Origin: Actinomycetota bacterium
GTDB lineage: Bacteria > Actinomycetota > Acidimicrobiia > Acidimicrobiales > AC-35
Direction of reading: 5' to 3'
Length of the DNA: 61,674 nucleotides
Assembly: GCA_005884125.1 (NCBI GenBank)
Contig: VAXP01000114.1
Location: 1-61,674 of the forward strand
The notes beneath the pieces were generated by a model that saw only the letters and a program-made list of their open reading frames with translations, searched no databases and had not been told where the DNA came from. A program made the position numbers and the translations under genes. Below, in pieces: positions 44,999 to 61,674 of this stretch (position 1 is the first letter of the stretch; each line of letters opens with the position of its first letter).

Positions 44999-45636
44999 GC
45001 CTGCCCCGTCGGGCCTGGCGCTCTCCGGTCGTGGTCCTGGCCGCCGGCTACGCCGCCGGAGCCGTCCCGTTCTCCAACATCGCGGCCCGCCGGGCTCGGG
45101 GCGTCGACCTGCGAGCCGTGGGTACGGGCACGGTCTCGGGTACCGCCCTCTACCGGGTGGCGGGGTTCGGCCCGCTGGCCCTGGCCGGCATTTTCGACGT
45201 GGCCAAGGGTGCGGTGGGCCCGCTGCTGGCCGGCCGCGACCGCCCCGTGCTGGCCGCGGCCAGCGGGGGCCTGGCCGTGGCCGGCCACAACTGGTCCCCG
45301 TTTCTGGCCGGCGCCGGGGGCCGGGGCGTGTCGACGGCCATGGGCGCGCTGGCCCCCCAGCAGCCGGCGGGGGCCCTGTTCCTCCTGGCCGGGCTGAGCC
45401 TGGGGCGTGTGGGCGGCGAGTCGGCCGTCGGCGTTCTCATCGCCGATCTGGCCATGGTCCCCCTGCTGTCGCGGCTGGGCGGCCGCCGGGGCCGCCTGGC
45501 CGGCGGGGCCGTGGTCCTGCCCATGGTGCTGAAGCGGCTGTTGGGAAACGCCCGGCCCCGGGGGGCGGGCCCCGCCGTCTATCTGTGGCGCCTGGTGCTG
45601 GACCGCGATCGCCCGTCGCCCGACCCCGCCGCGTAG
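44995..45636 (+). CDS. plsY: glycerol-3-phosphate acyltransferase PlsY
   Basis: GTG overlaps the previous stop (GTGA). Contains GAVPFSNIAARR...GTGTVSGTA...FDVAKGAVGPLLAG...AVAGHNWSPFLAGAGGRGVS, the PlsY motifs. Confidence 0.8.
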   Translation: MSLPRRAWRSPVVVLAAGYAAGAVPFSNIAARRARGVDLRAVGTGTVSGTALYRVAGFGPLALAGIFDVAKGAVGPLLAGRDRPVLAAASGGLAVAGHNWSPFLAGAGGRGVSTAMGALAPQQPAGALFLLAGLSLGRVGGESAVGVLIADLAMVPLLSRLGGRRGRLAGGAVVLPMVLKRLLGNARPRGAGPAVYLWRLVLDRDRPSPDPAA

Positions 45637-46469
45637 CCCGGGCCGGACGGGCGCTCCCACCACCAGGCCAGGCCCACCAGCCCGGGGCCGGTGTGGGCCA
45701 CCATCACCGGGCTGAACTCGGCCACGAAGGCGGTGGCCGGGGCCACGGTGGCGGTCACCCGCTCAACCAGGCGCCGGGCCTCGTCCTCGGCCCGGGCGTG
45801 CATGGCGGCCAGGTGGAGGCTCGACCCGCCGCGCCCGGCCAGGCAGCGGGCGACAATGCGGTCGAGGGCCGCCTCCCTGCTCTGCGACGGCCGCAGGGCC
45901 CGGGCCCGGCCATGGGAGAAGGCGAACAGGGGCTGCAGGCCCAGCACCCGCCCCGCCCACCCGGCCAGGCCGGGGACGCGTCCGCTGCGCACCAGCTGCT
46001 CCAGCCCGGGCATGGTGGCCACCAGCTGGACCCGCCCGGCCACGTCGAGGGCGGCGGCCTCGACCTCCTCGATGGTCGCGCCCGCGGCCGCGGCCCGGGC
46101 TGCGGACAGGGCGACCAGGCCCTCTGCTCCTGCGGCCGTGCGGCTGTCGACGACGCGGACCCCGTGTTCCAGCGTCGTCGCCGCCAACCAGGCCGACTTG
46201 TAGGTCCCGCTCATCTCCGACGCCAGCGTCACCACCACCGCGCCCCCGGCGGCCAGGGGCTCGAGCACCTCCAGGAACTCACCGGGCGAGGGCGCCGATG
46301 TGGTCACCTTCTCGGCCGTTCGGGCCACGACGTCCTCCGTCGCGACCGCGCCGTCGGGGTGGTCCTCGCCGCCGAGAACGAGGTGCTGGGCCACCACGCG
46401 GATGCCCCAGCGCTCCACCAGGTCCGCAGGAAGGGAGGCCGCGCTGTCGGTGACGACGGCGACCGTCAC
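45579..46469 (-). CDS. DegV-family fatty-acid-binding protein
   Basis: VTVAVVTDSAASLP...TSAPSPGEF... is a typical DegV N-terminus. GTG 46469 is taken as the start. There is no stop codon between it and the upstream gene: the track gives one 791-aa ORF, 45579..47954. Confidence 0.75.
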   Translation of the reverse strand: MTVAVVTDSAASLPADLVERWGIRVVAQHLVLGGEDHPDGAVATEDVVARTAEKVTTSAPSPGEFLEVLEPLAAGGAVVVTLASEMSGTYKSAWLAATTLEHGVRVVDSRTAAGAEGLVALSAARAAAAGATIEEVEAAALDVAGRVQLVATMPGLEQLVRSGRVPGLAGWAGRVLGLQPLFAFSHGRARALRPSQSREAALDRIVARCLAGRGGSSLHLAAMHARAEDEARRLVERVTATVAPATAFVAEFSPVMVAHTGPGLVGLAWWWERPSGPGYAAGSGDGRSRSSTRRHR

Positions 46470-47699
46470 CAGCGCAGGACCCCGCCCCTCCCACCTCGCC
46501 CCGCGGCCCCGCGGCCGGCTTCGCCGTCGGCGCCGGGCGCCGATGCCGTCGGGCTGCCGTCGAGTGGGAGCGTTGCGGGCACGGCTCCAGTGTGACAGGG
46601 CGATCGGGCCCTTCCGGACACCCGGTGGGGAGGAGCCGGGCTCAGGGGCTGGGGCGGGGGAGGCGGCGGAGGCGGTGCCGTTGGGAGGGGGGAGCGCGCC
46701 GGCCGGCGAGAGGGTGGCGTCGATCCCGGCAGGCTCGAGATCGACGCGCTGGGCCTGCCGGGACACGACGAGGGCGCCGGCCCTGACCCAGTCCTCCCGC
46801 AGCACTATGCCGGCCGGGTCGATGCAGAGGTCGTCCACGTCCGTGCCCCGCACGAAGGTCCACACCACCGACCCGTAGACCAGGATCTGGGGCGTCTCGG
46901 GGTCGGGGAAGGCGAAGCGCTCGCGGTCGCGCAGCTCGAAGCCGGCCGGCGCGGGCGGGTCGGCCAGGAAGGTGTCCACGGGCTGGCCCGGTGCGAGGGA
47001 GGCGGCGGAGGCGGTGCCGTTGGGAGGGGGGAGGGCGCCGGCGGGCGAGAGGGTGGCGTCGATCCCGGCAGGCTCGAGATCGACGCGCTGGGCCTGCCGG
47101 GACACGACGAGGGCGCCGGCCCTGACCCAGTCCTCCCGCAGCACGATGCCGGCCGGGTCGATGCAGAGGTCGTCGTGCTCGGAGCCGGTCAGGGGGCCGA
47201 GAGGTCCCGCGGGAGGGTCTCGGAAGCGGTACACCTGGCAGGCCCGGCCCGCCACCGCGCCCGGGCCCCGGGGCTGGGCCAGGCCCCTCCGGGCCGCCTC
47301 GCCCACCACGCCCAGCAGGTCCTGGTCCTCCGTGCCCAAGCCGGGCTGGCGGGCGGAGACGTCCTGGATGCCGTTGGGCGACAGCGAGTAGAGGCGGTCG
47401 GCCGTGGTCAAGGTGCCGCCCACGGGCCGGTCGCCGGGGCCCGGCGGGGCGCTGTAGGTGGCGTCACGGACGCGGAAGGGACGGTCGACGGTGAGCAGCT
47501 CCCACGTCCTGGTCTGCCCTCCGGGGCTCAGGTGGTCGACCTGGTACAGGACCTCATAGCGCGGGCTCTGGGCCGCGAAGGCCACCCCGGCCGGGATCCT
47601 GCGGGTGCCCGAAGAGGGACGCAGGGCGACGGCGGTGAGGACGAGGCCGGCGACCAGGAGGACGGCGAGGGCGACGGGGGCCCTGGCGCGGGCCGTCAC
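46470..47699 (-). CDS. membrane-anchored hypothetical protein carrying an internal 59-aa duplication; 3' end undefined (frame runs into degV)
   Basis: GTG 47699 (or TTG 47702) overlaps the TGA of the upstream ORF (GTGA). TM helix APVALAVLLVAGLVLTAVAL, then a globular part. The last 180 nt or so translate to Arg-rich sequence that looks non-coding. Confidence 0.55.
46658..46835. repeat. direct repeat copy A (178 bp)
   Basis: 175 of 178 positions are identical to 46997..47174 (offset 339 bp, which is 113 codons). Mismatches are at 46695, 46704 and 46806. Confidence 0.95.
46997..47174. repeat. direct repeat copy B (178 bp)
   Basis: Partner of 46658..46835. Both copies encode DDLCIDPAGIVLREDWVRAGALVVSRQAQRVDLEPAGIDATLSPAGALPPPNGTASAAS. 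Confidence 0.95.
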
Positions 47700-48360
47700 C
47701 AAAGAGGAAGAAGCCCGAGCCTCGCCCAGGGAGAGGTGGCGGAGCTCGGGGCCGGCGCCGCGCCCGCCCTGGGCGCCGCCGCCCCCGCTGCCCCCGAACC
47801 GCCGGGCGAGCACCCCGCCGTTGTGGCTACGGTGCCCGCGGCGTCGGCGGGGGGCGGCTGGCCCGTGGCCGAGGACGCGCCCTGCTGGGCCTGCTGCAGC
47901 CCGCCCACCGCGGTGGCCACCACAGGCACCGGCAGGTTGGCGTCTGGCGCGCACTTCGGTCCCTGCGACGGCGGCGGAGGTGGGGGAGGCGGGGGCTGGT
48001 CGGCGTTGCTGGGTGGCGCGGCGTCAGATCCGGGCGTGTAAGGCGGCGCGGACCCGGAGTCCGTCGCGGCCGGGGTTGCCGGCCCCGCCGGGCCCGACGC
48101 GGCGAGGGCCGCGCCCGAATCGGCCGCCGGTGTGGCCGGGCCGCCGGGGCCACGGGTGGAGGGGCTGCCGCCGCCTGGGGCGCGGCCGCGGCCAGGCGAG
48201 GGGCGCGGGCCGAGCTCGACGTCCGGTCCAGAGGCTGGAGCACGCCGAGGACGACGACCCAGGCCGCGCCCAGGGCGTAGAGGGCCCGGTAGCGGCGGAC
48301 GTGGACGATCAGGTGGAACAGGGGCTGGCCCAGGAGGCCGTCGCCCAGGGCTCCCTCCAT
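47696..48360 (-). CDS. small membrane-anchored low-complexity protein, apparently frameshifted
   Basis: ATG 48360 opens MEGALGDGLLGQPLFHLIVHVRRYRALYALGAAWVVVLGVL, an anchor paralogous to that of the binding protein at 55587. That frame then turns Arg-rich. The -1 frame is open throughout and reads ...PATPAADSGAALAASGPAGPATPAATDSGSAPPYTPGSDAAPPSNADQPPPPPPPPPSQGPKCAPDANLPVPVVATAVGG...LPLW*, with its TGA overlapping the next gene's GTG. Confidence 0.45.
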
Positions 48361-48512: not shown

Positions 48513-51500
48513 TCACCGTTTCGCCCCTACCGGGCTGCGCCCGGGCAGGACGTCCCGCTCGTCCCTGGTGCCCAGGTAGGACTCCACCACGGTCGGGTGG
48601 TGGAGGACCTCCTGTGGGAGCCCGTGGGTGACCACCGAACCCCGGTCGAGCGCGACCAGGTGGTCGGCCAACCCGGTGATGAGGGGCATGTCGTGCTCGA
48701 TGACAAGCATGCTGCACCCGAGGTGGCGCTGCACCTGGCGGAGCAACGGTCCGAGGGCCTCGGTCTCCTTCTGGGCTATACCCGATGAGGGCTCGTCCAG
48801 TAACAACACCGACGGGCGATGGGCGAGGATGGCGGCGATCTCGACCATGCGCCTGGAGCCCGTGGACAGCTCGGAGACGAACTTGTCCCGGAAGGCTCGC
48901 AGCCCGAGCAGCCGCAGGACCTCCTCCACCCGTCGGTTGAGATCGTCCTCCGACATGGTCACCGCCGGGAGGTGGAAGAGGGCGGCCACCGCGCTGGGCG
49001 TCTCGATGGAGCGCTCGAAGGCCACGGCGATGGCCTCCCGCACCGTGAGCGAGGGCCAGAGGCGGGCGTCCTGGAAGGAGCGCCCCACCCCCGCCGCGGC
49101 CCGCTCGGACGCGTTCCTGCGGGACAGGTCGGCGCCGTTGACGATCACCCGGCCTCCGTCGGCGGGCGTGAATCCGCACACCAGGTCGAAGATGGTGGTC
49201 TTGCCCGCGCCGTTGGGTCCGATGAGGCCCAGGATCTCCCCCTGGTGGAGGGCGAGGTCGACGTCGCTCACCGCGGCGATGCCGCCGTAGCGCTTGGTGA
49301 GGCCGTGGGTCTCCAATACGACCGGGCCTTCCAGGATGGCGGCGCGCCGGGCCTGGTCCTCCAGGTCCGACTTCGTGGGCTTGGCCGGTGTGCGCCGGCG
49401 TCGAGAGGAGGCCGTCTCCACGGCCTTGGTCTGCGCCCCCCGCACGGCGCCGTCCCTGTCACCGGCGCCGCTGCCGTTGCCGTGCCCGTTGGCCGAGGCC
49501 GCGCCCTGCAGGAACACGGCACGCAGCACGTCGGGGCGGTCGAGCAGCTCCGAGGTCAGGCCGCTGAAGCGGATCTCTCCCTTCTCCATGAACAGGGCTC
49601 GCTTGGCCAGGCGCAGGGCCAGGTTGACCGACTGCTCGACCAGGATCACGGTGGTGCCGTTGTCGTGGATGGCTTCCACGATGCCCAGCAGCCGCTCCAC
49701 GACCGTGGGCGCCAGGCCCAGGGACAGCTCGTCGATGAGCAGCAGCCGGGGCCGGGCGATGAAGGCCTGCCCCAGGCTCAGCATCTGTTGCTCCCCGCCC
49801 GACAGGTTGCCCGCGGGCGTGTCCCACCGGTCCCGGAGGATGGGGAAGTACTCGAGGACGCGCTCGGTTGCCTCCCGCAGGCGGGGCCGGTCCTTGCGGT
49901 ACATCCACCCCGCGGCCCGCATGTTCTCCCCGACCGTGAGGGTGGGGAACACGCCCCGACCACCGGGTACCTGCACGATCCCGAGCCCCGATGTCTGCCT
50001 GGCGTCGGCGTGGGTGATGTCGCGGCCCTCGAAGAAGATGGAGCCGCCGATGGGATCGACCAGTCCGCTGATGCCCTTGAGGAGGGTCGACTTCCCCGCG
50101 CCGTTGGTCCCGAGGAGGGCCAGGATCTCTCCCTTCTGCACGTCGAAGCTGACGTCGAAGAGAACCTGCACCCGGTCGTAGGCCATGTCGACGCCCCTGC
50201 AGGCGAGCAGGGCGTCGGTGTCGGCGCTGGCCTTGGCCTTCACGGCCTGGTCGATGTCCCGGCCCACGAAGGCACGCACCGTCGTCTCGATGGCGCCGCC
50301 CAAGGTCACCAACAAGCCCAGGACGAAGACCGCGACCCGCTCGCCGTGGGCGTCGCCGATGGAACCCACGATCGGCGTCCACAGCAGAGCGCCCCCCGCG
50401 TACCAGAGCAGCGACCAGGCGAAGGCCTGGGAGCGCAGGCGCGGGGGGGCGACCAGGGCCACCATGGTCTGGTAGGCCGGCAGGAAGCCGATGATGCCCA
50501 TGGCCAGGAAGCAGACGGCGGCGATGGAGACCGGCTGCCAGGGCGCCGCGGCCATGGCCAGCATGCCGATGCCCGAGGAGATGACCAGCCCCCCGTTGAC
50601 GATGGGGAGCAGCTCGGGGCGCTGGCGGCGGACGCTGGACTGGGCCCAGTACCCGCCGAGGAGGATCCCCGCCAGGCTGAAGACGTTGTAGACCGCGGTG
50701 ATGTTGCCCCGACCCACCGAGCCCAGGTGGTAGACGTCCTTGAAGAACAGGCTCAGGTAGGTCACGAAGGGAAGGGTCCCGGCGCCGAAGAAGAAGGCGG
50801 CCACCCAGGTACGGCGCAGGGACCGGATGGCCCTCACCCGCCGGTAACCCTCGCCCATGCTGGCCCGCTCCTCGTCGGGCACGGTGACCGCCAGTGAGGC
50901 TCCGCGGGCCGGGTCGCGCAGTCGGAGGAGGACGGCGACCAGCAGGAGGGTGGGGATGGCGAGGATGACGAAGGTCGGGCGCCAGCCGATGGCCGCGCCC
51001 AACGCCCCGGCGAGCACGCCCGCGACCGCCTGGGCACCGGTGCTGCCCAGGCGGTAGACGGCGAAGACGCCCGACAGGCCCTCGGGCGGGTAGTAGTCCG
51101 ACAGCAAGCTGGCGTGTACGGGTTCGTTGACGAGCTGGCCCACGCCGCCGGCCAGGCGGGCCACGATGAGGATGGCCAGGGCCGGGGCCAGGCCGGTGAA
51201 GATGGCCGTCACCCCCCACACCACGGCGCCTACGGCCGACAGCCGGATGCGGTTGAATCGGTCTCCTCCGTAGCCGACGGGCACCGCCAGCAGGATGGGG
51301 AGCACCAGGCTGAAGGTGGCGATGGTCGTGAACCCGCCGTTGGAGAGGTGGAAGGTGTCGCGGATCTCCGGGCCGAGGACGGCGAAGGCGGTGGCGTCGA
51401 AGCGCTCCACGGCGCTGAGGGCGGCCAGCACGACGAGCGGGACCCAGCCGACGGGGCCCAGCAAGCCCGACATCTGACGAATGCCGTTCAGGGGTGAGCG

Positions 51501-51524
51501 GGCGTAACGGGCCCGGTCAGCCAT
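48513..51524 (-). CDS. triple-fusion protein: MFS-type 12-TM domain + LivF-like ATPase + LivG-like ATPase
   Basis: 1003-aa ORF. Residues 1 to about 430 are MFS-like (GYGGDRFNR, ASLLSDYYP; similar to the stand-alone MFS at 38600..40060). Residues about 440-680 form an ABC ATPase (GTNGAGKST, LSGGEQQ, LLLIDELSLGL). Residues about 745-1003 form a second ABC ATPase (GPNGAGKTT, LSTGSRR, LLLLDEPSSG). The start overlaps the permease stop by 8 nt. Confidence 0.9.
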   Translation of the reverse strand: MADRARYARSPLNGIRQMSGLLGPVGWVPLVVLAALSAVERFDATAFAVLGPEIRDTFHLSNGGFTTIATFSLVLPILLAVPVGYGGDRFNRIRLSAVGAVVWGVTAIFTGLAPALAILIVARLAGGVGQLVNEPVHASLLSDYYPPEGLSGVFAVYRLGSTGAQAVAGVLAGALGAAIGWRPTFVILAIPTLLLVAVLLRLRDPARGASLAVTVPDEERASMGEGYRRVRAIRSLRRTWVAAFFFGAGTLPFVTYLSLFFKDVYHLGSVGRGNITAVYNVFSLAGILLGGYWAQSSVRRQRPELLPIVNGGLVISSGIGMLAMAAAPWQPVSIAAVCFLAMGIIGFLPAYQTMVALVAPPRLRSQAFAWSLLWYAGGALLWTPIVGSIGDAHGERVAVFVLGLLVTLGGAIETTVRAFVGRDIDQAVKAKASADTDALLACRGVDMAYDRVQVLFDVSFDVQKGEILALLGTNGAGKSTLLKGISGLVDPIGGSIFFEGRDITHADARQTSGLGIVQVPGGRGVFPTLTVGENMRAAGWMYRKDRPRLREATERVLEYFPILRDRWDTPAGNLSGGEQQMLSLGQAFIARPRLLLIDELSLGLAPTVVERLLGIVEAIHDNGTTVILVEQSVNLALRLAKRALFMEKGEIRFSGLTSELLDRPDVLRAVFLQGAASANGHGNGSGAGDRDGAVRGAQTKAVETASSRRRRTPAKPTKSDLEDQARRAAILEGPVVLETHGLTKRYGGIAAVSDVDLALHQGEILGLIGPNGAGKTTIFDLVCGFTPADGGRVIVNGADLSRRNASERAAAGVGRSFQDARLWPSLTVREAIAVAFERSIETPSAVAALFHLPAVTMSEDDLNRRVEEVLRLLGLRAFRDKFVSELSTGSRRMVEIAAILAHRPSVLLLDEPSSGIAQKETEALGPLLRQVQRHLGCSMLVIEHDMPLITGLADHLVALDRGSVVTHGLPQEVLHHPTVVESYLGTRDERDVLPGRSPVGAKR

Positions 51525-53743: not shown

Positions 53744-55587
53744 TCACTCGGGCTTGATGGGCGGCTCGTCGTTGTTCCACTGGCCCGACTGGAAGCGCTG
53801 ACCGCCGTAGGTGGCGATGTAGTTGCCGGCCTTGCCGTCCACCGCGATCGCCTTGGAGTCCCAGAAGACCTCCTTGGAGTCGATGATGGCGGTGTGCTCG
53901 TGGGCGAAGGACCAGGTGCCGAACGGAGCCGTCGGGCCGCCGGCCGTGGGCAGGGCCCTGCTCCCCGACGCCAGGTTCGTGATGTTCAGGGTGGGACCGC
54001 CCGCCTGCAGCTGGTTGTACATGGAGATGAGCTGGGCGTAGATGGCGTAGCCGCCCAGGGGGAGGTCCTTGCCGCTGGCCGCCTTGTAGGCGGTGTTGGC
54101 CTCGCCGGCCTTGGCGTTGGCCGCGGCCTCGTCACCCAGCTGGCTCATGCCGAAGACGTGGCCGTCGGACTGGTCCTGGGCCCCGCTCTCCCACAGCCGG
54201 GCGAAGGAGTCGCTGTCCTGCAGGGCCACGCCTATGTCGAGCCACTCGGGGTGGTACTGCTGGTTGTCGGCCTGCTGCATCAGGAACAGGCTCGAGTAGG
54301 GGTCGCAGGCCATGATGATCGTGGTGGCCCCCGCGGCGTGGAACTGGACAATCCCCTTGGCCGCCTCGCTCGGGAACTGGGAGACGTCGAGCGTGTAGTT
54401 GTACCGGGACGTTATGGGCACGTGGTAGATGGTCTTAAGGTCGGTCTCGGAGATGTTCACGCAGCGCTGGTAGCCGTCGTTGTTGGGGACGTAGGTGGCG
54501 AACTTGCGGTTCGCCACCTTGTAGGTCGCGTCGCCCGCCCACTTGGCGGGGCGGTTGGCCAGGCGCTTGCCGATGTATTCGGCCACGTCGTGGGCGATGC
54601 GCTCGCACTGAGGTGCGTTCCGGCCCAGACGTAGGGGTCCCAGCGCTGGTACCACAGCTCGGGGAAGTAGGGGGCTCCGAGGGGCAGGTACAGCCCGTAG
54701 CGCTTGGCGCACTCGGCGAAGGGCTGGCTCACGTACATGGAGTTGCTGGCAGGCAGCTCGATGACGCCGAAGGCCTTTACCGAGCTGGCGATGGCATCGG
54801 CGTCGGCGCACGCCGCGTCTTGGCCCTGGCTCTGAGCCTCCGAGGTGCCGTTGCCCTGGCCGTTGAAGTCGACCAGCTTCACCTGGCGGCCGAAGAGCTC
54901 GAAGTTCTTGTTGAAGTAGGGCACCAGGGCGTCGAGGATCTGGCGCTGCTCGGCGTTACTGGGGTTGCCCGCCTGCTGGTTGAGCTTGTCCAGGGCCTGG
55001 GCGTTGGGGCCGCTGGCGTCCGACGTGGCGCGCACGGCGATGGTGATGGTGTCTCCGGTGATGCCACGGACGCCGTTGGACCCGCCGTTGTTGCCGCTGT
55101 AGGCGGCCACGCACGGGGCGGCGTACTGCGAGAACTGGAGCTGACGCACGCCGGGCTTGCAGGCGACGCCGGCGCGCGTCGTGCCCGTCCCGACCGCGGC
55201 GGGGGCGACGGGGCCGCCCGACGTGCTGGCCGCCGGACCGCGGGCCCCCGCCGCCACGGCCCCGGCGCCGGCCGCGGCTCCCCCGCCGCCGGCCGCGGCC
55301 GCTGTCCCGCCCGCCCCGGCCGCGGGGCCAGCGGCCGCCCCCGCTCCGCTGTTGTCGGCCCCACCCACGCCGGCCACGGCCGAGCCGCCTCCCTTGTCGC
55401 TCGAGACCGAGGAGCTGCCGTGGTGCTCGAGGGTGGGCAGAAGGGCGATCATGACCGCCCAGATGGTCCCGAACACGTAGAGCGGCATGTAGCGGCGCAC
55501 ATGGAAGGTGGCCTTGAGAGCCGACCGCGAGACCGGGTCGGGCTGGTTGTCCAGAAGCTCCCGCTCCTGTTCCCGAGTGGTCAGCAT
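53744..55587 (-). CDS. membrane-anchored LivJ-type substrate-binding protein, reading frame broken by one frameshift near 54619
   Basis: Track ORF 54457..55587 holds the TM anchor, a Gly/Ala linker and the N-lobe up to ...PELWYQRWDPYVWAG. Track ORF 53744..54811 holds the rest, from ...NAPQCERIAHDVAEYIGKRL onward. The two overlap and are related by a -1 frame change. Confidence 0.75.
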
Positions 55588-55684
55588 GCTTCCCCCAAAG
55601 ACGGTCGAGAAGGTCGAAGCCCGCTGTCTCTAGTTCAACGGCGGCAGGTGTGACTCCTGCCACAGCCCAGCGGCACCACCCTTG

Positions 55685-55702
55685 CTTGACCCACGGGTCA
55701 AG
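55685..55702. promoter_or_regulatory. perfect 8-2-8 palindrome CTTGACCC-AC-GGGTCAAG
   Basis: It lies immediately 3' of the SRPBCC gene stop (55703-55705) and about 100 nt upstream of the binding-protein start (55587). It could be an operator or a terminator stem. It contains TTGAC on both strands. Confidence 0.3.
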
Positions 55703-56152
55703 TCAAGTAGTCCTCTCCAGGAGCAGCTTCATGCGCGCCATCTCCTCCCGGGTGTCCTGCGCCAGCCAGCCGCGGGCATAGGGCTCGAGCGCCCACCGCC
55801 ACGGGGCCCGGAACGTGAAGCACTCCCGGTGGACCACCTCGGTGCCCTGGTCCAGGGGGCGGCAGGTGAAGGACCCGTCGAACCGGAAGACCCAAGGAGC
55901 CAGCCCCGTCTCGGCGCTGGTGAAGCGCAGGCGGGACCAGGGCTCGAGCTCGAAACGCAGCGTCACGGGGGGTCCGGGGAGCCCCCTCAGGTGCCCGCCG
56001 TGGCGCACCGTGCCCGTGTTGCCGGTCCGGTCCATGCTGCGGATGCGGCGGATCTTGGTGTCCACCTTGGCGTAGCTGGGGAGATCGAGCACGAACTCCA
56101 GGACGTCGCGGGGCGACCGCTCGATGACGGCCCGGCCCTCGCCGCAGATCAC
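55703..56152 (-). CDS. SRPBCC (START/polyketide-cyclase-like) ligand-binding protein
   Basis: 149-aa ORF. The size and pattern (IERSPRDVLEFVLDLPSYAKVD...) are typical of SRPBCC proteins. GTG start. Confidence 0.65.
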   Translation of the reverse strand: MICGEGRAVIERSPRDVLEFVLDLPSYAKVDTKIRRIRSMDRTGNTGTVRHGGHLRGLPGPPVTLRFELEPWSRLRFTSAETGLAPWVFRFDGSFTCRPLDQGTEVVHRECFTFRAPWRWALEPYARGWLAQDTREEMARMKLLLERTT

Positions 56153-56226
56153 CGGCCCGTCCTACTACGGCCAGAGGCACGATCCGCCCCGGGCCAGACG
56201 ACTCCGGCCGGCCCCGTCCGTACCGT

Positions 56227-56350
56227 CACCGCCCGGCTCACCACCGCCCGGCTCACCACCGCCCGGCTCACCACCGCCCGGCTCACCACCGCCCGGCTCA
56301 CCACCGCCCGGCTCACCACCGCCCGGCTCACCACCGCCCGGCCCACCACC
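56227..56350. repeat. 15-bp tandem repeat, 8 copies (CACCGCCCGGCTCAC; 7 perfect plus 1 variant, then a partial unit)
   Basis: Read directly from the sequence: units start at 56227, 56242, 56257, 56272, 56287, 56302, 56317 and 56332 (the last has T>C). It sits in the 450-bp divergent intergenic region between 56152 (-) and 56602 (+). Confidence 0.95.
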
Positions 56351-56601
56351 CCTTCTGGCCCTTACCGGGGCCATGACCTGGCCCGCGAACCTGTGGTGCG
56401 GGTCGGTCTACCTCGCCGTGGTCGGGACATCGGGCTTCGGGTGCTGGCCTGGCCGGGGGCGGACGTCATCGCCGGGGGCGATCGGGTGGATCTGGGCTGG
56501 TGAGGGCAACCGCGCGGGCCTGAGCGCCGCCCGGGCCCGATCACCGACCGGGCGACGCCCGTCCCTTATGCTGGCTGACCGGGTCTTCCCCGCAATCCCC
56601 G

Positions 56602-57822
56602 ATGCCAGAGCCGACCTCTCTCTCGCCGACTGCCGCGGTCCGTGCCGAGCTCGACCGGGCGCCGGTCGGGCGAGCCGACCTGTTCTCCAAGTGCAGCTCG
56701 CCGCGCCTCGACGAGTTCCACGCGGCCGAGGCCGTCGGCCTGCTTCCATATTTGCACGAGGGCCAGCCGGTGATCATGCTCGGCTCCAACAACTACCTGG
56801 GCCTGACCAGCGACGAGCGGGTCAAGCGGGCGGCCGTCGATGCGGTGGAGCGGTTCGGGACCGGGTGCACCGGCAGCAGGCTGATGAACGGGACCCTTCC
56901 CATCCATCTGGAGCTGGAGAACGAGCTGCGGGACTGGCTGGGTGGGGAGGCCTGCCTGGTGTTCACCACCGGGTACTCGGTCAACCTGGGCACCATCTCG
57001 ACCCTGGTCGGCTCGCGCGACACGGTGTTCGTTGACGCCGCCAGCCACGCCAGCATCATCGACGGGGCCAGGCTGGCCTCGGGCAGCTTGCGATCGTTCC
57101 GCCACAATTCGGTGTCCGGGCTGCGCCGCAAGCTGGCCGCCTGGCGGGAGCAGGAGGGCGACGGGGCCCTGGTCGCGGTGGACGGCGTGTACTCGATGGA
57201 GGGCGACATCGCCCCCCTCGCCGAGATCGACCACGTCTGTTCCAGCCTGGGCGCCCGCCTCCTCGTGGACGAGGCTCACGCCCTGGGCGTGCTGGGCCCG
57301 GAGGGGAGGGGCAGCGCGGCCGCAGCCGGGATCTGGCCCGACCTGCTGATGGGGACCTTCTCCAAGTCGCTGGCCTCCTGCGGAGGGTTCCTGGTGGGCC
57401 CCCAGGCCGTCGTCGACTTCGTCCGCACCGCCTGCCGGCCCTTCCTCTTCACCGCCTCGGGCGTGCCCGCCGCCCTCGGCGCGGCCCTGGCCGCCCTGAG
57501 GGTGGCCCGGGAGGAGGAATGGCGCCGGGAGGCCGTGCGCGAGCGGGGGACGCAGCTCCGACGAGGGCTGTTCGAGCTGGGCTACGACGTCGGCGGAGAC
57601 CATGGGACGGCGATCCTGGCCGTCCACGTAGGTGACGACTGGGAGGCGGCCCGCCTGTGGCGGGCCCTGCTCGACCACGGCGTGTACACCAACTGCGCCG
57701 TCGCCCCCGCCGTGCTCCCCGGTCGGGCCCTGCTGCGCACCTCGGTGATGGCGACCCACACCGAGGCCCACATCGACCAGGCCCTGCGGGCTTTCGAGGA
57801 CGTGAGATCGAAGTCGGGCTGA
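56602..57822 (+). CDS. alpha-oxoamine synthase, serine-palmitoyltransferase-like
   Basis: 406-aa ORF. Contains GSNNYLGL, GTGCTGSRLMNGT, SFRHNSV, VDGVYSMEGDIAPL, DEAHALG, GTFSKS (the PLP lysine), ACRPFLFTAS and LRTSVMATHT. These closely parallel the Sphingomonas SPT as I recall it (GSRMLNGT, RFRHNSV, GVYSMLGDIAPL, GTFSKS, ACRPYIFTAS, LRCSICAEHT). Confidence 0.85.
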   Translation: MPEPTSLSPTAAVRAELDRAPVGRADLFSKCSSPRLDEFHAAEAVGLLPYLHEGQPVIMLGSNNYLGLTSDERVKRAAVDAVERFGTGCTGSRLMNGTLPIHLELENELRDWLGGEACLVFTTGYSVNLGTISTLVGSRDTVFVDAASHASIIDGARLASGSLRSFRHNSVSGLRRKLAAWREQEGDGALVAVDGVYSMEGDIAPLAEIDHVCSSLGARLLVDEAHALGVLGPEGRGSAAAAGIWPDLLMGTFSKSLASCGGFLVGPQAVVDFVRTACRPFLFTASGVPAALGAALAALRVAREEEWRREAVRERGTQLRRGLFELGYDVGGDHGTAILAVHVGDDWEAARLWRALLDHGVYTNCAVAPAVLPGRALLRTSVMATHTEAHIDQALRAFEDVRSKSG

Positions 57823-58730
57823 CCGGGGCCACCGGGCACCTGGGCACCTGCCTGCTCGACCGCCTGGTCCACGATCCGGCCGTGAACGCGATCCGCTCGG
57901 TCGCCCGCCGCCCCCTCCCAGAGCGCGACAAGGTCCACCACGTCTGCGCCGACCTGCGCGACCCGGCGGCCGGGCGCCATCTGGAGGGCGTCGACGTCCT
58001 CTGGCACCTGGGCTTCCAGCTCTGGCGCCGACGCCGCGACCCCGGGGGCCGCGGGGCGGCCGAGGTGAACCTGGCCGGCACGGCCAGCGTCCTGGCGGCT
58101 CGTCCCGGCCACGTGGTGCTGGCTTCGTCGGCGTCGGTGTACGGGGCCTGGGCCGACAATCCGCTTCCCATACCCGAGGCCCACCCACCCCGACCCAATC
58201 CCGAGTGCCCCTACGCGGGCCAGAAGCTGGAGGCCGAGCGCATGTGCGCGGAGGCGGCCCCCACCGCGGCCTTGCGCATCGTGGCTGTGCTCGGTCCCCA
58301 CGCCGATCCCATGGTGCGCCGGGCGGCCATGGGCTACCGCCGGGCGGTGCCGGCCGTGCGGGGCGCACGCCAGGCCCTGCAGTTCCTGCACGAGGACGAC
58401 GCCGCCGAGGCCCTCCACCGCGCCGGCACGATGCGGGCCACGGGTGTGATCAACGTGGCCACGCCCGACTGGCTGACGGAGGGCGAGGTGGCCCGCGTCA
58501 CCGGCGGGCGGGTGGTCCGAGTTCCCCGGAGGGTGCTCCTGGGGCTGGCCGAGGGGGCGTGGAGGGCCGGTCTGGTCGGGTTCGGCGCGGACAGGGCCGT
58601 GCTCATCTCGGGGCCGCTGGCCCTGGATGGGAGCCGGGCCGCCGAGGTGCTGGGGTGGGCCGCGACTACGGGTTCGGCCGCCGTGCTGGCCGGGTTCGTG
58701 GCCCGCCCGGCTCAGAGCCGTCGTTCGTAG
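57807..58730 (+). CDS. NAD-dependent epimerase/dehydratase-family (extended SDR) reductase; start codon unresolved
   Basis: The frame encodes ...EIEVGLTGATGHLGTCLLDRL (Rossmann GxxGxxG) and PYAGQK (YxxxK). The only canonical in-frame start (57657) lies 165 nt inside the upstream gene. ATC 57807 (6 nt after GAGGA) or CTG 57819 are the positional candidates. Confidence 0.7.
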   Translation: MEVGLTGATGHLGTCLLDRLVHDPAVNAIRSVARRPLPERDKVHHVCADLRDPAAGRHLEGVDVLWHLGFQLWRRRRDPGGRGAAEVNLAGTASVLAARPGHVVLASSASVYGAWADNPLPIPEAHPPRPNPECPYAGQKLEAERMCAEAAPTAALRIVAVLGPHADPMVRRAAMGYRRAVPAVRGARQALQFLHEDDAAEALHRAGTMRATGVINVATPDWLTEGEVARVTGGRVVRVPRRVLLGLAEGAWRAGLVGFGADRAVLISGPLALDGSRAAEVLGWAATTGSAAVLAGFVARPAQSRRS

Positions 58731-59950
58731 AGGCGCCAGGTCTTGTAGCGGACGGCGCCCATGGCGGCCAGGGCCGAGTTCATGCGGGTGTTGGTGGCCA
58801 GGATCCAGGACGCCTCGGCCCACTCGATGTTCGGCTTGGCCCGCATGCGGTCGACTATCTCGGCATACAGGAGGGGGCCCACGGCCCGCTGCTGGTGCTC
58901 GGCAGCCACCCCCAGGGCGAATCCCCGGGCCCGGCTCGGCCTCCGTGCTCCGCGCATGAGCCGCCACCAGCCCAGGGGGAGCAGGCGTCCGCTGCGGACC
59001 CCGCGCAGGGCCTGGTTCACGTCGGGAAGGGCCAGGCACACGGCCAGGGGCTCGCCCTCTCCGGTCTCCACCACGAGCGCGGCGTCGGGGTCGATGACCT
59101 GGCGCAGGCCCTTGGCCAGGTGGCGGATCTCCTCCTCCGTCATGGGCGCGAAGCCCCAGTTCCTGGACCACGCCGAGTTGTAGACCTGGAAGAAGCGGTG
59201 GACCTCGGCGTCGAAGTCGTCCATGCGCATCCCCCGCACCGACAGCCCGCTGCGGGCCTTCAGGCGGTCGAGGACCCGGCGCTGGCGCTCGGACAGAGCG
59301 GTGGACGCCCGTTCGAAGCGCCAGCCCCACAGGTCCATGGTCTGCTCCCACCCGCCGTCCACCCAGAGGCGTTCGTAGTACGGCGGGTTGTGGGGCGTGA
59401 GGATGAGAGGTGGGTGCTCGAATCCCTGCACCAGCAGCCCGCACTCGTCGTTGGTGGTGAACGACGCCGGACCCACGCACGTGGTGGCCCCGCGGGCGCG
59501 CGCCCACCGCCACACGGTGTCGAACAGGGCCGCCGCCGCGTCGGGATCGTCGAAGGATTCGAAGAAGCCGATCCACGCCCACGACAAGCCCTGGAACTCG
59601 TTGAAGAGGCGGTCGACACAGGCGCCGATACGGGCCACCGGCCTGCCTCGCCGGTAGGCGATCCACAGCGCCGTCTCCTGGTGGGCGTTGGCCGGGTGCT
59701 TGGGGGAGATGCGGTCGTGGACAGAGACGCGCAGGGGCGGGACCCACTCCGGGTCGCGGCCGAAGATGCGGAAGGGCAGGTCGACGAAGCGCCACCGGTC
59801 GATGCGGTTGCCCACCCGCTTCACCTCGACGGGAGCGATGCCGGGGGCCACGGGAGACGCCGGCGAGCCCGCCCCCGCGTCGGGGCCCGGCGCGGGCGCT
59901 TCGTCGGTGGGGGAGGCCAGGGCGGGGGCGCCGCCAGCGCCGTCTGTCAT
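58712..59950 (-). CDS. large GNAT-fold N-acyltransferase-like protein
   Basis: ATG 59950 follows AGGAGGGA. About 412 aa. The C-terminal GFALGVAAEHQQRAVGPLLYAEIV is a GNAT motif-A-like segment. The 3' end overlaps the reductase 3' end by 19 nt (convergent). Confidence 0.75.
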   Translation of the reverse strand: MTDGAGGAPALASPTDEAPAPGPDAGAGSPASPVAPGIAPVEVKRVGNRIDRWRFVDLPFRIFGRDPEWVPPLRVSVHDRISPKHPANAHQETALWIAYRRGRPVARIGACVDRLFNEFQGLSWAWIGFFESFDDPDAAAALFDTVWRWARARGATTCVGPASFTTNDECGLLVQGFEHPPLILTPHNPPYYERLWVDGGWEQTMDLWGWRFERASTALSERQRRVLDRLKARSGLSVRGMRMDDFDAEVHRFFQVYNSAWSRNWGFAPMTEEEIRHLAKGLRQVIDPDAALVVETGEGEPLAVCLALPDVNQALRGVRSGRLLPLGWWRLMRGARRPSRARGFALGVAAEHQQRAVGPLLYAEIVDRMRAKPNIEWAEASWILATNTRMNSALAAMGAVRYKTWRLYERRL

Positions 59951-60015
59951 CGTCCCTCCTGGCTCCCGTTCATTGCCGTCCCCGACGCTACCCGGCCCTT
60001 TCATATGCTGGCCCG

Positions 60016-60777
60016 GTGGCCGAGACCTTGAGGGAGAGGGTCGGGTCGATGCTCCTCGAGCTCGGCGCGCGCGTCCTGCAGGTGCTGGAGTGGTTCGTGG
60101 TCCGCTCCTCGCTGGTGCCGACGACCCCGTTCCTCCCGGTCGAGAGCTTTCCGTGGGCCCACCCGCTCGAGGACAACTGGAAGGTGATCCGGGCCGAGCT
60201 CGACGACGTGCTGCGCTGGCGGGAACACCTCCCCAACTTCCAGGACATCTCCACCGACCAGGAGTCGATCACCGACGACGACAGGTGGAAGACGTACTTC
60301 TTCTTCGGGTACGGGTTCCGGTCCGACTCCAACTGCGCCCAGTGCCCCGAGACCACCAGGCTGCTCGAGGACGTGCCCGGGATGACGACCGCGTTCTTCT
60401 CCATACTCTCGCCCGGCAAGCGCATCCCCGAGCACCGCGGGCCCTACAAGGGTGTGATCCGCTACCACCTCGGGCTCCTCGTTCCCGAGCCCCGCGACGC
60501 TTGCGGGATCAAGGTGGGCGGCCAGGTGGCCCACTGGGAGGAGGGCAGGAGCCTCGTCTTCGACGACGCCTACGAGCACGAGGCGTGGAACGACACCGAC
60601 GGTGTGCGGGTGGTGTTGTTCATGGACGTGATCAGGCCCCTGCGCTTCCCGGCGTCCCTGCTCAACCGGGCCATCATCAAGGCCATCTCGGTCTCGCCCT
60701 TCGTCCAGGACGCCAAGCGGCGTCACCTGGCGTGGGAGAGGCGCTTCGAAGCGGTGCAGGGGCGGACCTCGCGCTGA
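60016..60777 (+). CDS. aspartyl/asparaginyl beta-hydroxylase-family (LpxO/OlsC-like) 2-oxoglutarate dioxygenase
   Basis: 253-aa ORF. Contains FFSILSPGKRIPEHRGPYKGVIRYHLGLLVP...FDDAYEHEAWNDTD, typical of the Asp/Asn beta-hydroxylase fold. ATG 60049 is an alternative start. GC content is visibly lower than in neighbouring genes. Confidence 0.8.
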   Translation: MAETLRERVGSMLLELGARVLQVLEWFVVRSSLVPTTPFLPVESFPWAHPLEDNWKVIRAELDDVLRWREHLPNFQDISTDQESITDDDRWKTYFFFGYGFRSDSNCAQCPETTRLLEDVPGMTTAFFSILSPGKRIPEHRGPYKGVIRYHLGLLVPEPRDACGIKVGGQVAHWEEGRSLVFDDAYEHEAWNDTDGVRVVLFMDVIRPLRFPASLLNRAIIKAISVSPFVQDAKRRHLAWERRFEAVQGRTSR

Positions 60778-60790
60778 CGTCGTGGCCGGA

Positions 60791-60822
60791 CCGGCCTCCC
60801 GCGTGGTGCCAGGGGAGGCCGG
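60791..60822 (+). terminator. hairpin after the hydroxylase gene
   Basis: 10-bp perfect stem CCGGCCTCCC / GGGAGGCCGG with a 12-nt loop, 14 nt after the stop codon. No U-tract. Confidence 0.45.
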
Positions 60823-60827
60823 CGGCG

Positions 60828-60960
60828 GCTTGACATCGCAGGCGGCCGAGCCGATACGGTGGGCCGAGTTCCCAACGCAGGCGGAGCGCGGTCGGGATGG
60901 CGGGTCGGTGATGGGCCCGGGCCATCCTGACAGGTAGCCCTCGTAACCCCCGCTTTTTCG
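60828..60960 (+). promoter_or_regulatory. candidate ydaO-type (cyclic-di-AMP) riboswitch in the rpf leader
   Basis: The leader contains AUCGCAGG...GAGCC...GGUGGGCC...CCCAAC...GGUCGGUGAUGGGCC...CCAUCCUGACAGGUAGCCCUCGUAACCCCCGC followed by UUUUU. The 3' block matches the conserved ydaO segment CCG.CAGCUAACCUCGUAAGC, as recalled from the B. subtilis element. It lies upstream of an rpf gene, the classic actinobacterial context. Confidence 0.55.
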
Positions 60961-61047
60961 CGCTCGTGCCCTGCTCCGTTGCCCATGGGTGCCGTGGCGC
61001 GCCCGTGAGTCCACGCCAACCAGCCGACAGCGACAAGGAGGACAGCT

Positions 61048-61404
61048 GTGCCCATCTGCCGCACGAGGACCCGCACCTACGCCAAGATCGGTGCCACGTT
61101 GGGTGGCCTGGCCGCCACCGCCAGCCTGGCCGTCGGTGGAGTGCCGGCCCACGCCCAGGCCGCTCCCACCCCGGAGAGCTTCCACAAGCTCAGAGTGTGC
61201 GAGTCAGGCGACAACTACCGCTCGGTGGGCTACGGCTACTACGGCGCCTACCAGTTCGACATCCGCACCTGGAGGGGCCTGGGCTACGGCGGGCGGGCCG
61301 ACCAGGCGTCGCCCGCGACCCAGGACGAGGCCGCCCGCCGCCTGTACAACGCCCGGGGCTGGCATCCGTGGCCCGCGTGCTCCCGCAAGCAGGGCCTGGC
61401 CTGA
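61048..61404 (+). CDS. resuscitation-promoting-factor-like secreted transglycosylase (Rpf domain)
   Basis: GTG 61048 lies 6 nt after AAGGAGGA. Signal peptide, then RVCESGDNYRSVGYGYYGAYQFDIRTWRGLGYGG...ASPATQDEAARRLYNARGWHPWPAC, the Rpf/transglycosylase-like domain pattern. Confidence 0.85.
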   Translation: MPICRTRTRTYAKIGATLGGLAATASLAVGGVPAHAQAAPTPESFHKLRVCESGDNYRSVGYGYYGAYQFDIRTWRGLGYGGRADQASPATQDEAARRLYNARGWHPWPACSRKQGLA

Positions 61405-61410
61405 TGTGAC

Positions 61411-61442
61411 GGCCTCCTCGCCCTCCCGGGGGCGAGGAGGCC
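61411..61442 (+). terminator. strong hairpin after rpf
   Basis: Perfect 12-bp stem GGCCTCCTCGCC / GGCGAGGAGGCC with an 8-nt loop, 7 nt after the stop codon. Confidence 0.6.
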
Positions 61443-61497
61443 CCTCGCTTCCGGAGACCGGCGGGCGGAGTACAGGCAGGCGGAGTACAAAGGGGCC

Positions 61498-61674
61498 ATG
61501 CTCGACGCTGAGGTCTTGGGCGCCCATGTGAAGCGGATGAACGAGGACGGCTTCACCATCGTGGAGGATGCCTTGGAGGCTGAGCTGGTCGAAGCCCTGC
61601 GTGAGGACCTGGACCGCCTCGAGCGCGACCTGGGGGTGGTGCCGGCCGGCAACGACTTCGAGGGCCGCAGCACG
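61498..61674 (+). CDS. phytanoyl-CoA dioxygenase (PhyH)-family protein, N-terminal part (runs off the window)
   Basis: Manual translation from ATG 61498: MLDAEVLGAHVKRMNEDGFTIVEDALEAELVEALREDLDRLERDLGVVPAGNDFEGRST. This is a typical PhyH-family N-terminus. The frame is open to the window end. Confidence 0.55.
   Translation, partial: MLDAEVLGAHVKRMNEDGFTIVEDALEAELVEALREDLDRLERDLGVVPAGNDFEGRST

Follow-up and report, generated by a model that had tools for sequence, protein, structure and literature searches.

Can bacteria of the class Acidimicrobiia make sphingolipids? These abundant, mostly uncultured monoderm actinobacteria inhabit soils and waters, and the question is raised by a group of adjacent genes of a soil actinobacterium, at positions 55703 to 60777 of contig VAXP01000114.1 (assembly GCA_005884125.1), whose full 61,674 nucleotides we call the window. 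An initial annotation had read these genes as five parts of a ceramide-like lipid pathway: an alpha-oxoamine synthase, an extended short-chain dehydrogenase/reductase (SDR), a GNAT-fold acyltransferase, a hydroxylase and an SRPBCC protein. Our analysis suggests that they probably form an Spt/bCerS-type locus for making ceramide, the sphingolipid backbone, in a bacterium, accompanied by a hydroxylase. Homology and gene linkage underlie every pathway step that we propose.

All five open reading frames were confirmed where the initial annotation had placed them, and with a third-position G+C content (GC3) of 0.91-0.96 each, all look coding. The window DNA is of high GC content (70-77%), and the nearest relatives of its proteins are found in metagenome-assembled genomes of Acidimicrobiales. 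Loci of relatives that were compared with the window carry L-numbers (L001 and so on); where gene orders are given, AOS stands for alpha-oxoamine synthase and HYD for hydroxylase.

The synthase and its substrate

The gene at 56602..57822 (plus strand) encodes a 406-aa alpha-oxoamine synthase with the class I/II aminotransferase fold (PF00155, E 1e-50), a predicted serine palmitoyltransferase (SPT). Each of the motifs first quoted for it (SFRHNSV, GVYSMEGDIAPL, ACRPFLFTAS, GSRLMNGT and LRTSVMATHT) is present in the translation. On the strength of these motifs it had been placed nearer to Spt than to BioF or KBL, and NCBIfam profiles, PDB scores and neighbour-joining trees agree with that placement. 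Among the NCBIfam profiles, the two highest scores are those of Spt BetaP (392.7 bits) and Spt CFB (354.9), followed by bioF (327.4), Spt AlphaP (308.2), KBL (296), ALAS (218) and CqsA (199). The ten best PDB matches are all bacterial SPTs, at 271-291 bits, while BioF/KBL-type structures reach at most 217 and a cysteate-C-fatty acyltransferase 169. Identity is 42-44% to crystallised SPTs and 33-35% to BioF and Kbl; it is 41-45% to the Spt-type proteins of E. coli B, S. multivorum, S. paucimobilis, Streptomyces and Rubrobacter. Among these, the enzyme of E. coli B (41% identity) is one for which synthesis of 3-oxo-sphinganine has been demonstrated by enzyme assay (PMC9386255).

When the protein is aligned with the S. 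multivorum and S. paucimobilis SPTs, its DAASHASIIDG, VDEAHALG, TFSKS and LLRTS segments fall on the equivalent residues of both enzymes. The catalytic residues are conserved, namely the Lys that binds pyridoxal phosphate (PLP), the His, the Asp..His pair and the Arg, with roles that we take to be those assigned in SPT structures.

The trees tell a similar story. Neighbour joining of 75 sequences places the synthase within an Acidimicrobiia clade (200/200 bootstrap replicates), and with 70 sequences the Acidimicrobiia and Thermoleophilia proteins form a single Actinomycetota clade (200/200). A broader Spt-like clade, which unites the Actinomycetota clade with three characterised SPTs, is supported in 176/200 and 190/200 replicates, the latter against E. 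coli BioF, E. coli Kbl and Acidimicrobiia BioF. A grouping of the synthase with BioF or KBL, named beforehand as evidence against the proposal, was thus not found. The Acidimicrobiia genome of L094 provides a direct comparison, since it carries a separate bioA-bioF-bioD operon alongside its own Spt-like gene: the window synthase is 35% identical to the BioF of that genome and 66% identical to its Spt-like protein. Judged from its sequence, the enzyme is Spt-like and is neither a BioF nor a KBL.

Several points weigh against extending this family assignment to a confident choice of substrate. The synthase reaches none of the equivalog cut-offs set for Spt in NCBIfam (392.7 against 500 for BetaP, 354.9 against 640 for CFB and 308.2 against 670 for AlphaP), and its amino-acid substrate is for this reason not certain. 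These equivalog models are lineage-specific; a Streptomyces plasmid homologue likewise falls below the cut-off (376.9 against 640), whereas the E. coli B Spt lies above, at 599.9. The trees are neighbour-joining trees with few non-Spt outgroups. Finally, the synthase has Ala at the position of S. paucimobilis Arg378, although this is not disqualifying because the S. multivorum SPT has Ser there.

The low profile scores and the missing arginine would also fit a related N-acyl amino-lipid that is not built from serine, such as a 1-deoxy (alanine-derived) or glycine-derived sphingoid or a capnine-like sulfonolipid, made by identical chemistry. Such a product gains some plausibility from the trees, in which the Spt-like proteins of Actinomycetota group by themselves (200/200), apart from all characterised SPTs, and from Spt-like enzymes of environmental bacteria that have been credited with 1-deoxyceramides (PMC11334938). 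We consider it unlikely for this locus. Genuine SPTs are its top matches throughout, at up to 291 bits against 169 for the cysteate-C-fatty acyltransferase, every catalytic residue shared by SPTs is present, and the S. multivorum enzyme does without an Arg378 equivalent as well. We continue to regard serine as the probable substrate of the window synthase.

Acyltransferase, reductase and hydroxylase

The gene at 58712..59950 (minus strand) encodes a tandem-GNAT protein that the initial annotation had put at roughly 410 aa and convergent to the reductase. Its reading frame spans 58712-60004, and translation probably begins with the ATG at 59950, which follows an AGGAGG and yields a protein of 412 aa; the 3' ends of the SDR and GNAT genes overlap by 19 nt. 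The conserved body of the protein corresponds to 58712-59836, and the N-terminal ~40 aa are a low-complexity extension.

E. coli yghO was matched by tblastn of the GNAT against annotated plasmid records. In BLASTP, the two proteins align over their full length with 32% identity in 379 columns (E 2e-76). The E. coli gene appears in a published list of orthologues ('aca: CC_1154, yghO ECD_02850, Swit_3908 ...') as the N-acyltransferase needed for dihydroceramide synthesis (PMC9386255), and CC_1154 is the CerS/bCerS of Caulobacter (PMC11324152). The relationship to bCerS-type enzymes that had been proposed for the GNAT is borne out: by homology it belongs to the YghO/CC_1154 (bCerS) family and is a predicted long-chain-base N-acyltransferase. 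It must be counted against the assignment that the connection to the Caulobacter proteins CCNA_01212 and CCNA_01222 is made by way of E. coli YghO and of orthology tables from the literature.

Profile libraries contribute little here. The GNAT gives a weak PF13480 match, no NCBIfam match and no PDB sequence match at E <= 0.9, and E. coli YghO itself has neither a Pfam nor an NCBIfam match. The family is large all the same, as an exhaustive profile search collected 9294 clusters (at 50% identity) of ~375-aa proteins, 1851 of them with E < 1e-30. An AlphaFold model of the GNAT (pLDDT 77) contains two GNAT domains, and its best Foldseek matches, which include the entries 2wpw, 5kf1, 7q3a and 1ozp (E 4e-12) and the proteins MshD, Eis and FemX, are tandem-GNAT acyl-CoA transferases.

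The synthase and GNAT genes are separated by one gene alone, that of an extended-SDR (epimerase-fold) oxidoreductase (57807..58730, plus strand; PF01370, E 4e-15), which we predict to be a 3-keto reductase. The GATGHLG Rossmann motif (GxxGxxG) and the YAGQK motif (YxxxK) are intact in its translation. The frame is open from 57657, and the conserved protein starts at about 57807, which makes for an overlap of 16 nt with the synthase gene and its stop codon; a reductase that follows the synthase and overlaps its 3' end is what the initial annotation had described. With its start within the end of the synthase gene, the SDR is, as this layout indicates, translationally coupled to the synthase.

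The start itself is unusual. There is no ATG, GTG or TTG near the conserved N-terminus in the window. Five loci (the window, L005, L008, L095 and L096) have an ATC at the equivalent place in the alignment, where L004 has a GTG. Inside the end of the synthase gene, a GAGGxGG Shine-Dalgarno-like sequence precedes the ATC in the window, L005, L095 and L096; L008 has the ATC but no clear Shine-Dalgarno sequence. In L005 and L096, an in-frame stop just 5' of the ATC means that no canonical start is possible there. The SDR thus probably uses a conserved non-canonical AUC (ATC) start, and such a start would explain why the proteins in many database entries of this family are cut to 244-285 aa and miss the motif for NAD binding.

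The initial annotation equated the three enzyme classes with those of the Spt/bCerS/CerR route of Caulobacter. This stands for the Spt-like synthase and the bCerS-family GNAT but is less clear for the SDR, and the difficulty tells against a simple transfer of the known pathway. In pairwise comparison with CerR-type proteins, the SDR reaches only E 0.019 (E. coli ECD_02852) and 0.004 to 5e-4 (Streptomyces and Rubrobacter), and tblastn with CerR-type queries found nothing at 1e-3 in the window or in any Acidimicrobiia locus. A CerR-type hidden Markov model does detect full-length homology (64 bits, E 3.5e-19). In hhalign, the two align collinearly over 292 columns with 24% identity and a probability of 99.8%, levels similar to those expected between different extended-SDR families, and for each of them the curated family that comes closest is HpnA. 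The SDR cannot be called a CerR orthologue with confidence, and may be either a diverged CerR or a different extended SDR that has taken on its task.

The distribution of the SDR is equally two-sided. Its family was found in Acidimicrobiales only and always directly downstream of an Spt-like gene, in the same position in L004, L005, L008, L095 and L096. At six other Acidimicrobiia loci (L006, L007, L009 and L092-L094) it is missing, and because so many loci lack it, the SDR may be dispensable or replaceable, which again weighs against a fixed role. At one of these loci (L092, 4797-7988), a classical adh_short SDR and a 134-aa protein without a Pfam match come first in a tightly packed operon that also contains the hydroxylase and Spt-like genes. 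Adh_short is the SDR class to which eukaryotic KDSR belongs, and the L092 protein may be an alternative candidate for the 3-keto reductase.

The remaining enzyme, encoded at 60016..60777 (plus strand), is a 253-aa Fe(II)/2-oxoglutarate (2OG) hydroxylase of the Asp_Arg_Hydrox family (PF05118, E 6.5e-55), OlsC/LpxO-like and predicted to be a lipid acyl 2-hydroxylase. The initial description of an LpxO/OlsC-type enzyme divergent to the acyltransferase fits on both counts. OlsC (NF052565) is its best NCBIfam match, at 286.2 bits against a cut-off of 450, ahead of LpxO at 147.4 against 500. The gene is divergent from that of the GNAT across a 65-bp spacer (59951..60015) read from the sequence, a putative shared promoter region of the two. 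Its RYHLGL, FDDAYEHE and VRVVLFMD segments align with motifs of human AspH, so that both His residues that bind Fe and the Arg that binds 2OG, which we presume to be the ligands, are intact. Both scores lie below the equivalog cut-offs and the substrate is a guess, which has to be set against the lipid assignment.

Gene order speaks more directly to the role of the hydroxylase. An orthologue lies immediately upstream of the Spt-like gene in L004-L009 and L092-L094, and at L004 and L092-L094 the two genes share 4 nt. Within the sample of loci, the hydroxylase is linked to the synthase module across Acidimicrobiia and nowhere else. Relatives have the order HYD-AOS(-SDR) convergent with the GNAT gene, while in the window the hydroxylase gene sits on the other side of the GNAT gene, still adjacent and divergent. 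That the linkage survives this rearrangement argues for a function shared with the synthase and GNAT, and we predict that the enzyme would hydroxylate the acyl chain of a ceramide. No olsB, olsA, olsF or lipid A genes were seen among the window reading frames scanned, a scan that took in neither every reading frame nor the genome beyond the window.

Gene neighbourhood, pathway and acyl supply

To what extent is the cluster conserved? Species-representative genomes were scanned with the GNAT alone, using a profile from a narrower GNAT alignment, and the best 80 of the 596 relatives retrieved were examined. These 80 loci come from more than ten phyla, among them Acidimicrobiia, Thermoleophilia/Solirubrobacterales, Gemmatimonadota, Bacteroidota, Ignavibacteria, Bdellovibrionota, Acidobacteriota, Planctomycetota, Chloroflexota and Myxococcota. 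An AOS gene lies in the GNAT flank at 66 of the 80, within 400 bp at 55; at L032, which is counted among the 66, the AOS is distantly related, not of the Spt type and some 5 kb off. Pairing at this rate among loci that were retrieved through the GNAT indicates that the clustering is not due to chance. About 37 loci of the same set also carry an SDR clearly homologous to the CerR-type proteins of E. coli and Streptomyces. According to published surveys, spt, bcerS and cerR are often clustered, in 9 phyla that include some Gram-positives and later in ~40 predicted phyla.

Within Acidimicrobiia, Acidiferrimicrobium sp. IK (L004, GCA_025499425.1) has the full HYD-AOS-SDR and GNAT set. Three soil-metagenome contigs carry a near-identical GNAT gene with flanking SDR and hydroxylase genes, and one of them (L001) includes the end of the synthase gene too. 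Of the five-gene neighbourhood proposed at the outset, the core is therefore conserved and the SRPBCC gene, which appears at no related locus, is not.

Other arrangements occur elsewhere in the Actinomycetota. In Thermoleophilia/Solirubrobacterales (for example L014-L016, L020, L024, L025, L028, L029, L034, L049, L054, L072, L076 and L078), the Spt-like gene and the GNAT gene form a divergent pair, and no CerR-type SDR, window-type SDR or hydroxylase was found within the flanks of those loci (up to 10 kb). A Streptomyces sp. NBC_01001 plasmid (L087) has the order AOS-GNAT-epimerase-condensation domain, Rubrobacter radiotolerans plasmid 1 (L090) has AOS-GNAT-oxidoreductase-LTA synthase, and Nonomuraea gerenzanensis gave a GNAT match by tblastn. 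These complete Spt-GNAT-CerR-type operons (L087 and L090), borne on plasmids of cultured actinobacteria, suggest horizontal mobility and different downstream chemistry. Back within Acidimicrobiales, glycosyltransferase genes lie beside the Spt-SDR(-GNAT) module at two loci, of the MGDG_synth type in L095 (6171-7919) and of GT4 together with GtrA in L096 (4849-6454), and hint at glycosylated sphingolipid products. In L096, a ketoacyl synthase gene is directly upstream of the Spt-like gene.

Alternatively, the synthase-GNAT pair might be the sole functional unit, with the SDR and the hydroxylase doing unrelated work (as a sugar epimerase, say, and as a hydroxylase of proteins or ornithine lipids). 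The absence of the SDR from L006, L007, L009 and L092-L094, its negligible pairwise similarity to CerR, the restriction of the hydroxylase's place beside Spt to Acidimicrobiia and the annotation of some hydroxylase homologues as OlsC by JGI would all be accommodated. We nevertheless find this quite improbable. The overlap of the SDR start with the synthase stop and the Shine-Dalgarno sequence inside the synthase gene recur in L005, L095 and L096, and the SDR family was seen just directly downstream of an Spt-like gene. The hydroxylase gene, for its part, overlaps the start of the synthase gene by 4 nt in L004 and L092-L094 and stays by the module after the rearrangement in the window. The idea that the synthase is a BioF or KBL paralogue in a cluster unrelated to long-chain-base lipids can be set aside as very improbable: the bioF profile still gives 327 bits and the Spt cut-offs are not reached, but BioF and KBL score lower in profile and PDB comparisons and fall outside the Spt-like clade (190/200), L094 keeps its distinct BioF (35% against 66% identity), the window lacks a tdh or bio gene context, and the linkage to the GNAT gene extends across phyla.

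Under the ceramide reading, the pathway would run as follows. The Spt-like PLP enzyme would condense L-serine with a long-chain acyl thioester, probably acyl-CoA, to 3-ketosphinganine. The tandem-GNAT enzyme of the YghO/bCerS family would N-acylate the long-chain base with acyl-CoA, and the coupled extended SDR would reduce the 3-keto group to give dihydroceramide; these two steps may come in either order here, as they may in Caulobacter. The OlsC/LpxO-like Fe/2OG hydroxylase would then add a hydroxyl group, most likely at C2 of the acyl chain. It weighs against the whole scheme that Acidimicrobiia are a class without reported sphingolipids, whether from lipid or enzyme data, and nothing relevant came from searching the literature for a link between Acidimicrobiia and serine palmitoyltransferase.

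A broader proposal can be framed, which we offer tentatively and regard as doubtful when taken as a whole. In it, Acidimicrobiia would regularly make hydroxylated (dihydro)ceramides or glycosphingolipids as membrane lipids without an acyl carrier protein (ACP). They would do so by means of a lineage-specific, AUC-started 3-keto reductase (non-orthologous to CerR or highly diverged from it) and the first ceramide acyl hydroxylase of the OlsC/LpxO family, and reductases would be interchangeable across the class (the extended SDR, adh_short in L092, none linked elsewhere).

Where would the acyl groups come from? The initial annotation saw no gene for an ACP or an acyl-ACP synthetase, and our searches agree. 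By tblastn, E. coli AcpR and AasR have no match in the whole window; among L001-L085, AcpR has none and AasR has weak matches only, of 22-23% identity, in L066 and L079. The spacer between the divergent SRPBCC and synthase genes is unusually long (449 bp) and contains no ACP-like reading frame and no coding signature. In the absence of a dedicated ACP or acyl-ACP synthetase, acyl-CoA is probably the donor. In other Acidimicrobiia (L004, L006, L007, L009 and L092-L094), the GNAT gene is flanked by orthologous genes for an AMP-binding (FadD-like) enzyme, at 62-65% identity, and a metallo-beta-lactamase-fold protein, at 71-83%; L092 is without the metallo-beta-lactamase-fold gene and L094 shows no AMP-binding gene. 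The AMP-binding enzyme could be a supplier of the acyl donor there. The window holds an orthologue of neither.

The SRPBCC gene itself (55703-56152, minus strand; PF10604, E 4.8e-12) was rejected as a fifth component. A homologue is absent from all 85 related loci, and as its position is conserved at none of them, it is probably outside the unit. Two superficially similar cases proved unrelated in sequence, an SRPBCC gene near the Rubrobacter cluster (E 0.72) and the 134-aa protein of the L092 operon. Within the long spacer lies a tandem repeat (56227-56350) of 8.3 copies of a 15-bp unit, CACCGCCCGGCTCAC, with 99% match. An Rfam search of 55400-61674, which includes the spacer, found no riboswitch or other RNA family.

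Other parts of the window deserve brief mention. An Rpf-type transglycosylase gene (61048-61404) is consistent with an actinobacterial host. About 8 kb upstream of the locus, a 791-aa reading frame (45579-47954, minus strand) has a DegV (fatty-acid-binding, FakB-like) domain in its C-terminal third. At 53744-55587 (minus strand), upstream of a branched-chain-type ABC permease gene, two reading frames (54457-55587 and 53744-54811), neither with a Pfam match, overlap by ~355 nt in different frames, and the tail of the first reads as out-of-frame; they may be one frameshifted gene, through pseudogenization, assembly error or recoding. A 1003-aa reading frame at 48513-51524 (minus strand) joins an N-terminal MFS_1 domain (residues 35-381) to a pair of ABC ATPase domains and to the C-terminal motif of branched-chain ABC proteins; provided that the reading frame is real, such a fusion is unusual.

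Comparison with known sphingolipid systems

How does the locus compare with sphingolipid systems already described? In Caulobacter crescentus the pathway comprises Spt (CC_1162/CCNA_01220), bCerS/CerS (CC_1154/CCNA_01212) and CerR (CC_1164/CCNA_01222), and the E. coli B counterparts are spt (ECD_02854), yghO (ECD_02850) and epi (ECD_02852). The three enzyme classes are clustered in Caulobacter as in the window, and in all three cases an extended SDR of ~305 aa adjoins spt. In the E. coli record, yghO is divergent from genes for a fatty acyl-AMP ligase, an epimerase, an ACP and a class I/II aminotransferase, followed by lptG and lptF; this region, aasR-cerR-acpR-spt-lptG-lptF, mirrors the Caulobacter sphingolipid cluster (PMC11324152). 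The window differs in having no AcpR, no AasR and no second copies of LptF and LptG, and its SDR, unlike that of either organism, is not recognisably a CerR-type orthologue (E 0.019). It also carries an OlsC/LpxO-type hydroxylase, whereas acyl hydroxylation in Caulobacter has been attributed to the DesA-family protein CC_0202 (PMC11324152). As the host is a monoderm, there would be no periplasm in which the reductase could act (compare PMC11087976). Because it lacks the dedicated ACP and acyl-ACP synthetase encoded with spt in the rhodobacterial AcpR/AasR-dependent system, the window appears nearer in acyl supply to the acyl-CoA-using type of Bacteroidetes.

Within the phylum, the closest comparison is with the operons of Streptomyces (L087) and Rubrobacter (L090), whose synthases are 45% and whose GNATs are 37-38% identical to those of the window. 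Like the window, they have no ACP or AasR gene listed (by tblastn for L087 and by annotation for both). They carry a canonical CerR-type SDR, 34% identical between the two (E 2e-33), to which the window SDR reaches only E 0.004 to 5e-4; they have no hydroxylase, are co-directional and in some cases lie on plasmids with a condensation domain or LTA synthase. Streptomyces aurantiacus is reported to make ceramides (Stankeviciute 2022, cited in PMC11743623). The earlier suggestion that the product might be new, on the ground that actinobacteria lack sphingolipids, is weakened by that report and by the presence of the module in Streptomyces, Rubrobacter, Nonomuraea and Thermoleophilia. It would not be correct to present actinobacterial sphingolipid genes as unprecedented, and the core finding extends published work and overturns nothing.

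If the ceramide reading is right, sphingolipid-type lipids would be made by a major environmental group of the Gram-positive type without an outer membrane, which bears on the role of such lipids in bacteria and on the source organisms of soil and sediment ceramides. Two enzymes of the locus are also leads that can be put to the test, namely a reductase unlike CerR and, linked with a ceramide pathway, a hydroxylase of the LpxO/OlsC type.

The single enzymes can be compared in the same way. BioF and KBL share the PLP fold and the catalytic residues of the window synthase at 33-35% identity, but they rank lower in every comparison and lie outside the Spt-like clade. OlsC, which 2-hydroxylates the acyl chain of ornithine lipids in Rhizobium, and LpxO, the lipid A 2-hydroxylase, share the Asp_Arg_Hydrox Fe/2OG domain with the window hydroxylase, whose partner is the Spt/bCerS module in place of ornithine-lipid or lipid A genes. 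Taken together, these comparisons present the locus as a further instance of an established pathway and not as a novel type of system, its accessories being a lineage-specific reductase and a linked hydroxylase.

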